Positions 5,421 to 50,260 of a DNA stretch of 64,000 nucleotides are shown here, one piece after another. Location of the stretch: contig JAHEYB010000001.1 in the NCBI GenBank assembly GCA_023251805.1, positions 40,384 to 104,383 of the forward strand, given 5' to 3'. The stretch's first letter is position 1. The number at the start of each line of letters is the position of its first letter. The position numbers and the translations under genes were made by a program. The notes under the pieces are model-generated. The model had not been told where the DNA came from. It did not search any database and saw only the letters and a list, made by a program, of their open reading frames with translations. Origin of the DNA: Bacteroidota bacterium (GTDB lineage: Bacteria > Bacteroidota > Bacteroidia > 2-12-FULL-35-15).

Positions 5421-5464
5421 TCCGTAAAATTTTACTTTAGGAATGGTCGAGGATAGAAAACCAT

Positions 5465-5552
5465 TTACTTTTTCCTTCGTCAGTACTAACTGCATCAGGT
5501 TCAAAGGGTATTTCTCAGTTCTCCGATAAGCAGGAGGACACCCCTAAAGTGA
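5465..5552 (-). promoter_or_regulatory. TPP (THI-box) riboswitch controlling thiS-thiC-...-thiG
   Basis: The reverse complement reads GGGGTGTCC..CTTATCGGAGAACTGAGAAATACCCTTTGAACCTGATGCAGTTAGTACTGACGAAGGAAA. It contains the conserved CUGAGA and ACCCUUUGAACCUGAU..GUUA.UAC..CG.AGGGA cores of RF00059, directly upstream of thiS. Confidence 0.85.
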
Positions 5553-5645
5553 TATAAAGGTATAAAACTTTGGGTTGGAAATGAAATTTATAAAAGGAAT
5601 AGTTTTCAACAGAAAACCAGTTTGAATTTGGTCTTAATTCATGAT

Positions 5646-17463: not shown

Positions 17464-17509
17464 GTCTTCAACTCAGCTCAGCCTGACGAATGGATATAAT
17501 AATATTAAT

Positions 17510-18592
17510 ATGAGTAAAATAATTTCCATAGGAACTGCCGTACCCGAGCATCGCACCAAACAACCTGCGATACTCGAATTTATGCAAGCAGCATATGGAA
17601 ACGATGTGGCTTCTCGTAAACTAAATGTACTGTTCAACAATAGTGGGATTAGTTCACGCTATTCGGTCATTCCGGATTTTGATAAGAGTAAAAATCAGCA
17701 CATTTTCTTTAATGGAACACCTAGCACAGCAACAATTGAAAACCGATTGGATGTATTCAAAGAAAAAGCAATTCCATTAGCGCTCGATGCAATTGAAAAT
17801 GCGTTTAAAAAAATCGATACAAATTTTGAAACGTTTGGTGTCACACATTTAATCACCGTTTCTTGTACAGGCTTGTATGCTCCTGGTTTGGATGCTGTTT
17901 TAATTGAAAAATTAAATCTTCCAAAAGATATTTTTCACACCTCAGTGAACTTTTTAGGATGTAATGCTGCTTTTCATGCCTTGAAAATCGGAGATATGAT
18001 TACAAAATCGGAGCCTGATGCAAAAGTGTTGATTGTTTGCGTGGAGCTGTGTACCTTGCATTTTCAGCCGAAAAACAATCACGACAATTTATTATCAAAT
18101 ACCATTTTTGGTGACGGAGCGGCAGCGGTTATCATGACATCTGCAGACAACAATCAAAAAGGAATTAGCATCAAAGGATTTTATTCGTTGTTGTTGGATG
18201 AAGGGAAAGAGTTGATGGGTTGGAACATTACGCCAGTAAATTTCGAAATGATTTTGGATGCGAAAATTCCAGAAATGATCGGAGATAAAGTCAACGAAAT
18301 TGTCGTAAGTGCATCAAAAAAGTTAAACATACAACCCGAATCAATATCGCAGTGGGCCATTCACCCGGGAGGAAAGAAAATTGTAGATGTGATAAAAAAC
18401 AAATTGCAACTCAGCGATGAAAAAGCAAAAGCATCTTACAAAGTATTAGATGAATTTGGAAACATGTCTTCCCCAACTATTTTATTTGTATTAAATGAGT
18501 TGATGAAAGAATCCAAAGCGGGAGATATAATTTTCTCAATCGGATTTGGCCCTGGTTTAAGTATAGAAACGGCTTTGTTTATTAATGAGTAA
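17510..18592 (+). CDS. Type III polyketide synthase (chalcone/stilbene synthase family)
   Basis: 360 aa. Catalytic triad context is present: Cys151 (NFLGCNAA), His285 (AIHPGGKKI), Asn318 (FGNMSSPT). C-terminal GFGPG loop. Confidence 0.9.
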   Translation: MSKIISIGTAVPEHRTKQPAILEFMQAAYGNDVASRKLNVLFNNSGISSRYSVIPDFDKSKNQHIFFNGTPSTATIENRLDVFKEKAIPLALDAIENAFKKIDTNFETFGVTHLITVSCTGLYAPGLDAVLIEKLNLPKDIFHTSVNFLGCNAAFHALKIGDMITKSEPDAKVLIVCVELCTLHFQPKNNHDNLLSNTIFGDGAAAVIMTSADNNQKGISIKGFYSLLLDEGKELMGWNITPVNFEMILDAKIPEMIGDKVNEIVVSASKKLNIQPESISQWAIHPGGKKIVDVIKNKLQLSDEKAKASYKVLDEFGNMSSPTILFVLNELMKESKAGDIIFSIGFGPGLSIETALFINE

Positions 18593-19325
18593 ATTCACTA
18601 ATCGCTCCTACGAACTCGAATTACTGGATGCAACCAACATCCCTAAAGAATTACTTTTTCAAAACCTTCGTGAATTAGATGTGGTAAATCGTTTGTTGGG
18701 AGGACACGCAATCACACTCTCTGGAATCAAAAAATTAGTCAAGAATAAAAATAAAACGTATCACATCATTGATATTGGTTGTGGAGGCGGAGACGCCATG
18801 ATTCAAATTGCGAAATGGGCAAAAATAAATTCCTATAAAGTAAAATTAACGGGAGTTGATATGAATGCGGATTGTATTGATTACATGAAAAATGCTTGCA
18901 AAGAGTTTTCTGAAATCGATGGAGTAGTGATGGATTATCGCGATTATTTAAAAACAAATGCGAATGTAGACATTGTGCATTGCTCCTTGTTTTGCCATCA
19001 TTTAAAAGAGGATGAGTTGATAGAGTTGTTTCAATACATGAATAAACATGCACATGTTGGATTTGTAATAAACGATTTACAGCGACAATGGTTTGCGTAT
19101 TATAGCATTTGGTTTTTAACACGTTTATTAAATGGTTCTTCTTTGGTAAAAAATGATGCGCCATTATCGGTGTTACGCGGATTTAGAAAAAACGAGTTGG
19201 AAAAATTATTGAATGAATCAGAAGTGAAAAATTATTTTTTGAGTTGGAAATGGGCATTTAGATATTTAGTGACAAAAAATTACAACACAGAGAACGCAGA
19301 GCTAAAAAGAGGTCCACAGAGTTAA
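18585..19325 (+). CDS. Class I SAM-dependent methyltransferase
   Basis: 246 aa. SAM motif I IIDIGCGGGD. Overlaps the PKS stop by 8 nt. The last ~25 codons lie in a tandemly duplicated repeat. Confidence 0.8.
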   Translation: MSKFTNRSYELELLDATNIPKELLFQNLRELDVVNRLLGGHAITLSGIKKLVKNKNKTYHIIDIGCGGGDAMIQIAKWAKINSYKVKLTGVDMNADCIDYMKNACKEFSEIDGVVMDYRDYLKTNANVDIVHCSLFCHHLKEDELIELFQYMNKHAHVGFVINDLQRQWFAYYSIWFLTRLLNGSSLVKNDAPLSVLRGFRKNELEKLLNESEVKNYFLSWKWAFRYLVTKNYNTENAELKRGPQS

Positions 19326-19530: not shown

Positions 19531-20700
19531 ATGAACAACTCTAACACTTACAAAGTAAGTATTATCGGTGGCGGATTAGCCGGTTTAGCATTAGCCATAC
19601 AACTAGCTGATGCCGGACACTCTTGCGTGTTGTTCGAAAAAAATAAATATCCCTTTCACAAAGTGTGTGGAGAATATATTTCCATGGAGTCTTGGAATTT
19701 TTTAGAGCGATTGGGATTAAATTTATCGGAATTAAACCTTCCTAAAATAAATCGTTTACAAGTTTCATCCCCCTCCGGAAAATTATTAAAACACCAATTG
19801 GATCTTGGTGGCTTCGGAATCAGCAGATATTTGTTAGATTCCAAGCTTTCGGAAATTGCTAAGAATAAAGGAGTTCGCGTATTAGATGATTGCAAAGTAA
19901 ACGATGTGAAGTTTAATGAAAATCAATTTACTGTCGATTCCGCTCAAGGAATTTTTACTTCTGAACTTTGTATCGGAGCCTGGGGCAAAAAAAGTAACCT
20001 TGATACAAAATTACGGAGATTGTCCCCCGGAGTTTATCCTGAGCGGAGTCGAAGGAGAGGGGGCAGGGGGAGGGCCGGACAGAACTACGTTGGAATTAAA
20101 TACCATATCAATATTGATTTTCCAGCTGATTTAATTGAGCTTCATAACTTTAAAAACGGTTATTGCGGAATTTCTAAAATAGAAGAAGATAGATATTGTC
20201 TGTGTTATTTAACAGATTCAGAAAACCTAAAAAAGTATAATGGCGATATCAACAAAATGGAAAAAGAAGTATTGTTTCAAAATCCATTTTTGAAAGAGTA
20301 TTTTTCCAAAGCAAAATTTTTATTTGAAGAACCATTAGCCATTTCGCAAATTAAAATTGGTTATAAAAGTGCTGTAGAAAATAATATTCTAATGCTAGGC
20401 GACACTGCAGGAAATATTGCACCATTGAGTGGAAACGGAATGAGCATGGCGATGAGAAGCTCTTTTGAGCTCAATAAGTTGTTAAATAGTTACTTTGAGA
20501 ATAAAATCACGAGAGAAAAATTAGAAAATCAGTATTTGAAATTCTGGACTTCTCAATTCAAAAAAAGAGTAGAACTTTCGAAAACATTACAAAAACTTTT
20601 AAAAAATTCAGGGATGACTAATTTGGCAATTGCTTTTTTAAGAGTCGTTCCCTTTTTGAGGAATGCAGTAGTGAAATCAACACACGGAAAGCCGTTTTGA
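19531..20700 (+). CDS. FAD-dependent oxidoreductase (geranylgeranyl-reductase / aromatic hydroxylase-like flavoprotein)
   Basis: 389 aa. N-terminal dinucleotide fold VSIIGGGLAGLALAIQLADAGHSCVLFEK and a C-terminal GDTAGNIAPLSGNGMSMA motif. Contains an odd Arg/Gly-rich insert (next feature). Confidence 0.8.
   Translation: MNNSNTYKVSIIGGGLAGLALAIQLADAGHSCVLFEKNKYPFHKVCGEYISMESWNFLERLGLNLSELNLPKINRLQVSSPSGKLLKHQLDLGGFGISRYLLDSKLSEIAKNKGVRVLDDCKVNDVKFNENQFTVDSAQGIFTSELCIGAWGKKSNLDTKLRRLSPGVYPERSRRRGGRGRAGQNYVGIKYHINIDFPADLIELHNFKNGYCGISKIEEDRYCLCYLTDSENLKKYNGDINKMEKEVLFQNPFLKEYFSKAKFLFEEPLAISQIKIGYKSAVENNILMLGDTAGNIAPLSGNGMSMAMRSSFELNKLLNSYFENKITREKLENQYLKFWTSQFKKRVELSKTLQKLLKNSGMTNLAIAFLRVVPFLRNAVVKSTHGKPF
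20022..20082 (+). repeat. GC-rich repeat-family sequence inserted in frame in the flavoprotein gene
   Basis: gtcccccggagtttatcctgagcggagtcgaaggagagggggcagggggagggccggac carries the CCTGAGCGGAGTCGAAGG word otherwise seen only between genes (26329, 28896, 30839, 34761, 47467, 50237). It translates to SPGVYPERSRRRGGRGRAGQ. Confidence 0.6.
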
Positions 20701-20722: not shown

Positions 20723-21511
20723 ATGAACTTAGACTTATCAGGAAAAACAGCAATGGTGTGTGGAAGTACACAAGGAATTGGAAAGGCAGCAGCAATTGAA
20801 TTAGCATTGCTTGGTGCAAATGTTGTTTTGGTTGCCCGTAACGAGGAATCATTAAAAACTTCTTTAAAAGATTTAGATGCTTCAAAAGGACAGAAGCACA
20901 ATTTCCTTGTTGCGGATTTCCAACAATCCAATCAATTAAAAGAAAAAGTAGAAAATTATATTGCAACGCAAGGAGCAATTCACATTTTGGTAAATAATAC
21001 GGGTGGACCACCAAGCGGACGAATCCAAAATGCAAAAGTGGATGAATTTTTACTAGCCTTCAACAACCATTTGGTGTGTAACCACATTTTAGTTCAAGCC
21101 ACCATCGAAGGAATGAAAGAAGCAAAATACGGTCGTGTGATAAACATTATCAGCACCTCTGTAAAAATTCCTTTGAAAAATTTAGGTGTGTCAAATACCA
21201 TTCGTGCTGCTGTTGCTAATTGGAGTAAAACATTGGCGAATGAAGTAGCATCCTATGGAATTACTGTCAACAATGTGCTTCCCGGAGCAACCTTAACTGG
21301 AAGACTAGAAAGCATCATTGAAAATAAATCAAAAAACACAGGTGAATCTTTAAACGAAATTAAAAACGAAATGGAAAGTGAAATTCCATTGGGTCGTTTT
21401 GCTGAACCAGCAGAAGTGGCGAATGCGATTGCGTTTTTAGCTTCCCCAGCAGCTTCTTACATCACTGGAATTAATGTTCCTGTGGATGGTGGAAGAACGG
21501 GGAATTTGTAG
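20723..21511 (+). CDS. Short-chain dehydrogenase/reductase (FabG-like)
   Basis: 262 aa. GSTQGIGKA cofactor motif, NNTG, and an SDR-typical C-terminus (NVLPG..). Only 22 nt after the flavoprotein gene. Confidence 0.85.
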   Translation: MNLDLSGKTAMVCGSTQGIGKAAAIELALLGANVVLVARNEESLKTSLKDLDASKGQKHNFLVADFQQSNQLKEKVENYIATQGAIHILVNNTGGPPSGRIQNAKVDEFLLAFNNHLVCNHILVQATIEGMKEAKYGRVINIISTSVKIPLKNLGVSNTIRAAVANWSKTLANEVASYGITVNNVLPGATLTGRLESIIENKSKNTGESLNEIKNEMESEIPLGRFAEPAEVANAIAFLASPAASYITGINVPVDGGRTGNL

Positions 21512-26302: not shown

Positions 26303-26456
26303 TTCAATTTAGAACAATGTCCTTAATTGTCACTTCGAGCGGAGTCGAGAAGCTTGTGAACTAAAGGTTAGGAATTTAACAACATAAAAATAATCCTATT
26401 TTACAAGCATTCTTCACTATAGATTTATAAATTTACCATAGTTTTAAAACCATCCT

Positions 26457-28859: not shown

Positions 28860-28964
28860 TGAGCATTCTTTCAAAAATAACTGTAACCACATTCTCCGTC
28901 ATCCTGAGTACTTCGACTTCGCTCAGTATAAACTTAGTCGAAGGAAAGGAGTATCTAAATTATT

Positions 28965-30838: not shown

Positions 30839-30892
30839 CCCTTCGACTACGCTCAGGGTGACGTCCTAACCGTCAGTCTGAGCGTAGTCGAA
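30839..30892. repeat. Perfect-looking palindromic copy of the GTCACCCTGAGCGTAGTCGAAGG repeat family
   Basis: cccttcgactacgctcagggtgacg tcctaac cgtcagtctgagcgtagtcgaag. Two arms of about 22 nt in inverted orientation between yicC and gmk. Confidence 0.75.
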
Positions 30893-30922
30893 GACTAGGT
30901 AAACTAAAAGCATAAATAGAAC

Positions 30923-34686: not shown

Positions 34687-34986
34687 ACCCACTCCTAACC
34701 CCTCCCACAATGAGGGGAATTGATTCTCTGCAAAAAAATTTCGTATAATTCAGATTTAGACCTTCGTCACCCTGAGCGTAGTCGAAGGGTAGATCAATAG
34801 AACTTCAATAGATTTTTCGTTTAACTCGAAGCTTTTCACTCAGCGAATCTGCGGCTAGCCATTTTTGATAAGCCCCAATTTTCATTTGTCCACCAAAAAG
34901 CCCTTTCCGTCTAAAGCAGGATATAACATTTCAAACCAATGAAATAAAATCGTAAATTTGTGTATCATTAAAACCCAAACCATTTC

Positions 34987-47452: not shown

Positions 47453-47536
47453 AATTTAGTTCCTTTCCCTTCGATGTTTCTGCTTCAACGCAGAATGCTC
47501 AGGGTGACGGTTTAAAATTATATTCAATTAATAAAC

Positions 47537-50211: not shown

Positions 50212-50260
50212 CCTGATGCTTTTATTATAATAAATTGTCACCCTGAGCGAAGTCGAAGGG

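Follow-up and report, generated by a model that had tools for sequence, protein, structure and literature searches.

The 64,000-nt stretch of Bacteroidota DNA analysed here (the window; GenBank assembly GCA_023251805.1, contig JAHEYB010000001.1, positions 40,384 to 104,383 of the forward strand) carries, inside the reading frame of a gene for a 389-aa flavin adenine dinucleotide (FAD)-dependent oxidoreductase (19531..20700, +), a 63-nt segment that, to judge from sequence comparison, is probably the genome's own short palindromic repeat DNA, copied into the loop-coding part of this flavoprotein gene and now translated. With its bounds set against orthologs, the segment spans positions 20014-20076 (cggagattgtcccccggagtttatcctgagcggagtcgaaggagagggggcagggggagggcc) and has a GC content of 66.7% versus 33.2% in the remainder of the gene, which upholds an earlier first-pass annotation that had pointed to a GC-rich repeat of roughly 60 nt in frame within this gene, while refining its extent. 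The segment encodes residues R162-A182, and the open reading frame (ORF) runs through it continuously and without stops, so that the preserved frame and the added Arg/Gly-rich peptide noted at that stage both stand (RRLSPGVYPERSRRRGGRGRA-GQ across the insert; RRLSPGVYPERSRRRGGRGRAGQ for R162-Q184).

A nested repeat composite within the flavoprotein gene

What had been described as a single miniature repeat is indeed intergenic repeat DNA in a coding region, but it proves to be a nested composite of two dispersed families, in which a hairpin element with C5 and G5 runs holds a 27-29-nt unit in its loop, and it takes the place of about 30 nt of host sequence. The left arm of the outer element (CGGAGATTGTCCCCC; 20014..20028, +; codons R162-P166) matches the family consensus ttCGGAGCaTGTCCCCC, and its right arm (AGGGGGCAGGGGGAGG; 20058..20073, +) is a perfect match to consensus. 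The element as a whole measures about 36-45 nt and reads (AAATTA)CGGAGnnTGTCCCCC...AGGGGGCAGGGGGAGG; its C5 and G5 runs pair as a hairpin, the apex of which, TCTGGA in intact copies, is filled in the flavoprotein gene by GGAGTTTATCCTGAGCGGAGTCGAAGGAG (20029..20057, +). This inner unit, GAGTTTATCCTGAGCGGAGTCGAAGGA, belongs to the GTTTAT subfamily of an abundant unit, aCGTCAnnCTGAGCGnAGTCGAAGn'n', that resembles repetitive extragenic palindromic (REP) sequences; it contains the family core exactly at 20039-20054 and the word CCTGAGCGGAGTCGAAGG exactly at 20038-20055. Codon alignment with the sister allele L032 places an extra GCC codon (A182; 20074..20076, +) after the element and just before GGA CAG (G183 Q184), which is kept from the ancestral loop.

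Close homologs, typically of 378 aa, most often have a 12-residue loop between a conserved Leu and NYVGIKYH (e.g. NREFTKEEKSGK; the modal length, in 71/118), versus 23 residues in the window protein. The sister allele itself (P0002/L032; about 90% identical, 100/98 branch support) lacks the segment and keeps the ancestral loop EFANETKTGQ, which ends in ggg cag, and the GGA CAG (GQ) of the window allele is thus ancestral. By this alignment 63 nt (21 codons) stand where about 30 nt (10 codons) were lost, for a net gain of 11 residues (389 versus 378 aa) and not the twenty or so first estimated. In a different loop, which reads KFNENQFT in the window protein, L032 has an 8-residue insertion of its own (STENGRAK-type, codons for KLNSTENGRAKGKQFT).

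Elements of the same kind occupy this loop in other species, the left arm of the hairpin element being found at the identical codon in L006, L056, L031 and L029. L006 and L056 carry the bare hairpin, LRS(V/L)SPSGGGRGR, at exactly the ancestral length; L029 has the hairpin followed by remaining ancestral codons, L031 and L057 a hairpin with a different nested insert, and L058 a hairpin remnant, and some orthologs have a 20-residue VPATVKPAMSLSKAERGR-type loop. The left junction (TTA/CGGAG) is common to all hairpin alleles and the right junctions vary. An approximately unbiased (AU) test with the loop masked rejects monophyly of these alleles, a group that was defined after the first tree had been seen (delta lnL 211, p = 1.7e-5), so that either a recurrent target site or the exchange of loop alleles by recombination is called for. 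The loop RRVPATVKPAMSLSKAERGR (VPA-type) of other orthologs shows no significant similarity to the window's insert (p ~0.2-0.6), and its reading as a decayed copy of that insert was rejected; its resemblance to a hand-built AAGCCTGCC-core variant (0/2000 shuffles) was obtained with a query composed after the data had been seen and is suggestive only.

The host protein is assigned to the group A flavoprotein fold from its ORF, Pfam and Foldseek matches and gene neighbours. It has an N-terminal GGGLAG dinucleotide fold and matches FAD_binding_3, DAO and NAD_binding_8 in Pfam, and Foldseek matches of its AlphaFold2 model (mean predicted local distance difference test score, pLDDT, 83.8; predicted template modelling score, pTM, 0.86) include the halogenases PltA and CndH, the geranylgeranyl reductase 3oz2 and PqsL. 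The gene sits in a cluster of UbiA, type III polyketide synthase (PKS; 17510-18592), methyltransferase (18585-19325), flavoprotein and short-chain dehydrogenase/reductase (20723-21511) genes, all five of them intact. In the model, residues 165-181 fall below a pLDDT of 50 and form an unstructured connection from helix 156-162 to strand 185-194; the helix follows the conserved GAWGKKSNLD motif, which we take to be the FAD-binding DG motif of the fold. With the loop excluded, the ratio of nonsynonymous to synonymous substitution rates (dN/dS) against the sister gene is 0.051 at a dS of 0.80, and all family-invariant residues are present, on which the gene looks functional and under strong purifying selection. 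These results, together with the closest ortholog that does without the segment, agree with the earlier suggestion of an insert tolerated as a surface loop, here a predicted one.

The two repeat families in the window and in the genome

The genome (G000) was searched as an assembly of 2.98 Mb in 80 contigs, with 35% GC and 80% completeness. The core of the inner family, CTGAGCGGAGTCGAAG / CTGAGCGnAGTCGAAG, is present in 199 copies at up to 2 mismatches in the whole assembly, about 90% of them outside long ORFs, with a family consensus of aCGTCAnnCTGAGCGtAGTCGAAGn'n't. Two positions beside the core covary, forming Watson-Crick pairs in 170/198 and 178/198 copies with four pair types at each position, and the core unit is therefore a small hairpin; neighbouring copies within 150 nt are in inverted orientation in 43 of 56 pairs. 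Among 201 sampled Bacteroidota genomes, the core 16-mer occurs in 48 (39/110 genera), this genome having the highest count with 130 exact copies. At three sites (G000:C75:11600-11680, C3:13560-13640 and C3:17330-17420) a core copy has GTGCGAGAAGCCTGYC before it and, after it, GC-rich sequence that looks structured; group II introns may have their 5' ends here, or the word may be part of some other RNA.

The hairpin family, like the core family dispersed and mostly intergenic, has 24-32 copies in the genome and the consensus ttCGGAGCaTGTCCCCCTyTGrAGGGGGCAGGGGGAkG, preceded by a weakly conserved AT-rich left arm (aAAAta..atTt). Its 25-mer was found in one other of the 201 sampled genomes only, and in some congeners. 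Nesting of the kind seen in the flavoprotein gene recurs between genes. In 12 cases the loop of a canonical unit holds a GTTTAT-subfamily copy in inverted orientation (cacttcgact/TAGTTTATGCTGAGCGTAGTCGAAGTA/ctcagtgtgac), and at C79:10438 a GTTTAT unit lies within a hairpin element, forming an intergenic composite 83% identical to the gene insert over 52 nt. Within the window, the intergenic composite at 28897..28945 (+) is a host unit, CGTCATCCTGAG...AGTCGAAGGA, whose loop is occupied by a GTTTAT-type unit in inverted orientation (28909-28935). Across species this site is nested in G000 (CGTCATCCTGAG[TACTTCGACTTCGCTCAGTATAAACTT]AGTCGAAGGA), uninterrupted in G065 (CGTCATCCTGAGCGGAGTCGAAGGA) and empty in G062 and G003, such that the nested unit stands as 27 nt in place of 3, a net gain of 24 nt. 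The window allele of the flavoprotein gene differs from the hairpin-only allele by the same net 24 nt, and a step of this size per nested unit preserves the reading frame.

Matches to CCTGAGCGGAGTCGAAGG in the window number six at up to 3 mismatches, versus 0.02 expected from shuffles; besides the one at 20038 they lie at 28910(-), 30840(-), 30877(+), 34771(+) and 50242(+). The first-pass annotation had placed the word outside the gene at six intergenic sites only, and in line with this the long-ORF bodies of the window hold none of the other repeat copies, but two of those sites, 26329 and 47467, are diverged and give no match at this threshold, and a further, diverged copy lies at 17466..17481 (-), in the leader that precedes the type III PKS gene. 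Site 26329 reads TCGAGCGGAGTCGAGA, a diverged family variant, with the intergenic unit GTCACTTCGAGCGGAGTCGAGAAG at 26333..26352 (+); in four relatives, the number of family copies in the orthologous spacer is 0, 1 or 2. The loop of a variant unit at 47467..47510 (-), read by eye, encloses another small hairpin (ttctgcgttgaagcagaa), a type of unit that recurs in the genome-wide list of core copies. Two canonical units form an inverted doublet, similar to REP doublets forming hairpins (REPINs), in the intergenic spacer at 30840..30894, the orthologous spacer being just 2-6 nt in G062 and G003. In G010 (L078, G010:C4), a relative with 4 core copies and no hairpin copy, the spacer orthologous to 30839 has a 511-nt insertion in which a small GIY-YIG-like protein (MTNANNTVLYTGVTNNLEKR...) lies between inverted CATTGCGAGCGCAGCGAAGCAATC-type repeats. 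Single canonical intergenic units are found at 34771..34788 (GTCACCCTGAGCGTAGTCGAAGGGT, +) and 50242..50259 (+). A small GC-rich palindrome, ccactcctaacccctcccacaatgaggggaattg, occupies 34688-34722, 40 nt upstream of the unit at 34771, in a spacer of about 200 nt that measures about 16 nt in G062. Rfam at gathering scores recovers from the window only a thiamine pyrophosphate (TPP) riboswitch (RF00059, 67.6 bits; 5455-5555, -), with no match at any repeat copy.

About 20 of the 199 core copies, or some 10%, lie in frame within long ORFs, and the flavoprotein case is therefore no one-off. Since the core is free of stop codons in five of its six reading frames, copies within genes can easily survive. 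Six of the host genes are identified by Pfam, encoding a beta-ketoacyl synthase, a UvrD helicase, MetH, the arginyl- and leucyl-tRNA synthetases (ArgRS and LeuRS) and a family-2 glycosyltransferase; further copies, judged by eye, fall within linker regions of three other proteins, IF-2, FtsK and an E2 acyltransferase. The LeuRS gene (L036, G000:C76:29437-33708) has, in frame, the hairpin element EKFRRISPSPRGQGEAW in one of its loops and the unit-in-hairpin composite APSPVILSGVEGQGEKLPD in a second, and may have a third repeat-like in-frame segment, KSPFSKGTPSEEGGKGDD. Relatives have hairpin-only, short or AT-rich decayed versions at these loops, and the first of the two elements is absent from the closest relative (92% identical). 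Between genes the picture is similar, the spacers at 26329, 28896 and 30839 varying among species from empty to filled with one element, two elements or different ones.

Origin of the segment and alternative explanations

We propose a model where both element families are non-autonomous and would be copied by an enzyme acting in trans, or through templated repair or gene conversion. New units would tend to enter the loops of existing hairpin repeats, as 27 nt for 3 and with the frame kept, and the copies that survive in genes would be those that are in frame, free of stops and located in surface loops or linkers; the flavoprotein enzyme is predicted to work despite its extra loop. The fixed left junction, as well as the resemblance of the host sequence ACAAAATTAAATCG to the element's left arm AAAATAATTTCGG, suggests that the copying may be templated and guided by microhomology. 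In a bolder version, which we regard as unlikely, one and the same element of about 45 nt would, on several independent occasions, have overwritten the same codon position of the flavoprotein loop and likewise the two LeuRS loops, with the left junction fixed and host codons replaced, as a homology-guided templated 'patch': the AT-rich left arm AAAATAATTTCGGAG would pair with the look-alike host ACAAAATTAAATCG, and later 27-nt units would join the hairpin apex in frame-preserving net steps of 24 nt. If this were true, dispersed repeats would act as donors that remodel protein loops.

Several observations weigh against the main reading of a copied repeat. Neither family could be linked to a transposase or nuclease. 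The one clear gene similar to REP-associated tyrosine transposases (RAYTs), encoding a 153-aa Y1 transposase (PF01797, 1.7e-32; C4:125692-126036, outside the window), has no core match within 1.5 kb in this 80% complete genome, and its region (L033 1396-1857 (-) and 1860-2320, corresponding to G000:C4:125587-126511) holds at least eight flanking copies of a different palindrome, GTCCCnnnGGGAC, or GTCCC(nnn)GGGAC, in a classic REP-plus-RAYT arrangement; as this gene is accompanied by a REP of its own, a RAYT link to the insert's families was rejected. No clear target-site duplication was found at the insert, and simple transposition does not readily explain an event that replaced host sequence instead of inserting cleanly into it. 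The predicted RNA fold of 20005-20100 is not stabler than that of shuffled sequences (z = +1.1), and nesting in larger palindromes affects 12/198 core copies, where controls average 8 and reach up to 15, which gives no support to a general preference of core units for larger palindromes. Two other classes of element were considered and set aside: a miniature inverted-repeat transposable element, given that no direct repeat borders the insert, that about 30 nt of host sequence were replaced and that empty-site comparisons reveal no clear duplication; and an intein, intron or bypass element, given a 63-nt, in-frame and stop-free segment with no splicing domain and no Rfam match.

Alternatively, a loop allele already bearing the hairpin may have been imported from another congeneric species by short-patch homologous recombination between conserved flanks, so that the recurrent hairpin at one codon in unrelated branches would reflect allele exchange and not repeated insertion, a possibility that we take seriously but hold to be the lesser one. 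The scatter of hairpin alleles over the tree, with their monophyly rejected by the AU test, argues for exchange, as do the common left junction and a linked Thr-to-Asn codon three codons upstream in 6/7 hairpin alleles; however, the window allele retains the ancestral ACA (Thr), its inner unit and 3' junction are unique, and the Asn codon may belong to the element's own AT-rich left arm. A comparison of near and far flank identities, of low power and confounded by indels in L031 and L032, gives no conversion-tract signal. Furthermore, among five genomes checked, those with an in-gene hairpin hold 10-11 hairpin copies elsewhere and two without hold none, an association that, in five genomes only, fits a local origin. 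It is also conceivable, if improbable, that selection maintains the GC-rich hairpin for some function and accounts for its recurrence; it would then act in RNA or DNA, by making translation pause where two domains meet or by affecting mRNA stability, or in the protein, as an Arg/Gly-rich loop. The return of elements to the same loop in several species, and likewise to two LeuRS loops, would agree with this, as would the rare Arg codons and the domain-junction position read from the sequence, but the element is missing from most orthologs, the sister allele among them, the content of the insert varies by lineage, decayed AT-rich versions exist in LeuRS and the fold energy is ordinary. Intergenic sites are, moreover, equally patchy in their occupancy, which points to a mutational hotspot rather than to selection.

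That the insert silently killed the enzyme, with the ORF still open merely since the event is recent, had been raised in the first-pass annotation as the alternative to tolerance, and we consider it very improbable. The repeat parts have hardly diverged from their family consensus, suggesting a young event, and eight Arg and five Gly residues are added beside the conserved GAWGKKSNLD motif. Against inactivation stand the low dN/dS over a dS of 0.8, the complete set of family-invariant residues, the intact five-gene cluster, the disorder of the loop in the model, the same protein in several samples and the long inserts kept at this loop in several other lineages under equal conservation. Least probable of all, to the point of being negligible, is an assembly or binning artefact in the form of a chimeric join through the repeat. 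Repeats are classic misassembly sites and the assembly is fragmented into 80 contigs and 80% complete, but the exact 389-aa protein is encoded on four contigs, which derive from three or more independent samples or assemblers (the source contig, ENA ERZ27296333, ENA ERZ27297344 and Logan SRR14366772), on which grounds we dismiss an artefact; the gene DNA at L035 is identical to that of the window in diverged surroundings, the frame is continuous, and one and the same gene lies on both flanks of the segment.

Relation to known repeat systems

In kind, the insert is already known: it is an intragenic insertion of REP type or of the type of the Rickettsia palindromic elements (RPEs), with nesting as in the small dispersed repeats of cyanobacteria. 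The RPEs, work on which by Ogata and colleagues dates from 2000 and 2002, are reportedly selfish palindromic repeats that lie in frame in many unrelated protein genes and are translated, in surface loops that spare the fold, and RPE-1 is said to measure 100-150 bp. The flavoprotein case shares with them a repeat in frame within a protein gene and in a low-confidence loop of the model, as well as other hosts, six of which are confirmed by Pfam. It differs, going by their description, in phylum, in a sequence called unrelated and in being a 63-nt nested composite as opposed to 100-150 bp, and also in that the insert replaces loop codons and recurs at one site in different species. The small dispersed repeats of Nostoc and relatives, reported by Elhai and colleagues in 2008, are said to have units 21-27 nt long that show compensatory changes in a stem, often lie nested in themselves or in other small repeats, leave no target duplication and encode no protein. 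The covariation of our unit, its 12 self-nested as well as hairpin-nested copies, and the nested, un-nested and empty states of orthologous sites recall these repeats in behaviour only; theirs are cyanobacterial, of other sequences, and not described mainly as in-frame parts of proteins.

Among REPs, the CGTC-tagged class (Di Nocera, De Gregorio and Rocco 2013, PMC3733652) is present in Bacteroidetes, has no dedicated transposase and is sometimes nested in palindromes; a minority of its copies lie in frame within genes, including those of tRNA synthetases and UvrD-type helicases, and the RPEs are equated with CGTC-1 and CGTC-4 REPs (PMC3733652). The core family resembles this class in being short and palindromic, of high copy number, mostly intergenic and often arranged as inverted dimers, and in the types of host gene, tRNA synthetases and UvrD. 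Members of the class measure 20-40 bp and bear an unpaired CGTC (or TGTC/CCTC) tag at one end; the consensus of the core family reads aCGTCA there (aCGTCAnnCTGAGCG...), and the in-gene copy has GTTTAT at that place. In contrast to the CGTC REPs, with their 8-9-bp stem starting with A-T pairs, 4-5-nt loop and CCA tail, the core unit has 5 bp (A-N-N-C-T / A-G-N'-N'-T) around a 12-nt loop, GAGCGTAGTCGA; to reach 8 bp the stem would have to include tandem G-A mismatches, and there is no CCA tail. The outer hairpin element is without counterpart in that paper (PMC3733652). The inverted doublets of short palindromic units between genes are also reminiscent of REPINs mobilised by RAYTs (Bertels and Rainey 2011, PMC3116915), from which they differ in that the RAYT-like gene of this genome is bordered by GTCCCnnnGGGAC and not by the insert's family. 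As stem, loop and tail fail the CGTC definition and an association with RAYT is lacking, the insert is not assigned to any named family, and literature searches returned no description of this Bacteroidota repeat family.

Two points are unusual: a nested composite of two families occupies a codon-exact position, and the same element reappears at this loop in different species. In-protein repeat elements, best known from Rickettsia, would thus extend to free-living, low-GC Bacteroidota, where they affect both housekeeping genes and a natural-product cluster. For annotation, Arg/Gly-rich or Ser/Thr-rich loops may be repeat DNA that inflates the apparent divergence of orthologs. Filled, half-filled and empty orthologous sites within one genus also provide a tractable data set on the copying of mini-repeats that lack an enzyme of their own. 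Elsewhere in the genome, four tandem 81-nt repeats (G000:C66:22764-23040) each contain a TCCCCCTTGGAGAAGGGGGCTAGGGGGATTG hairpin.

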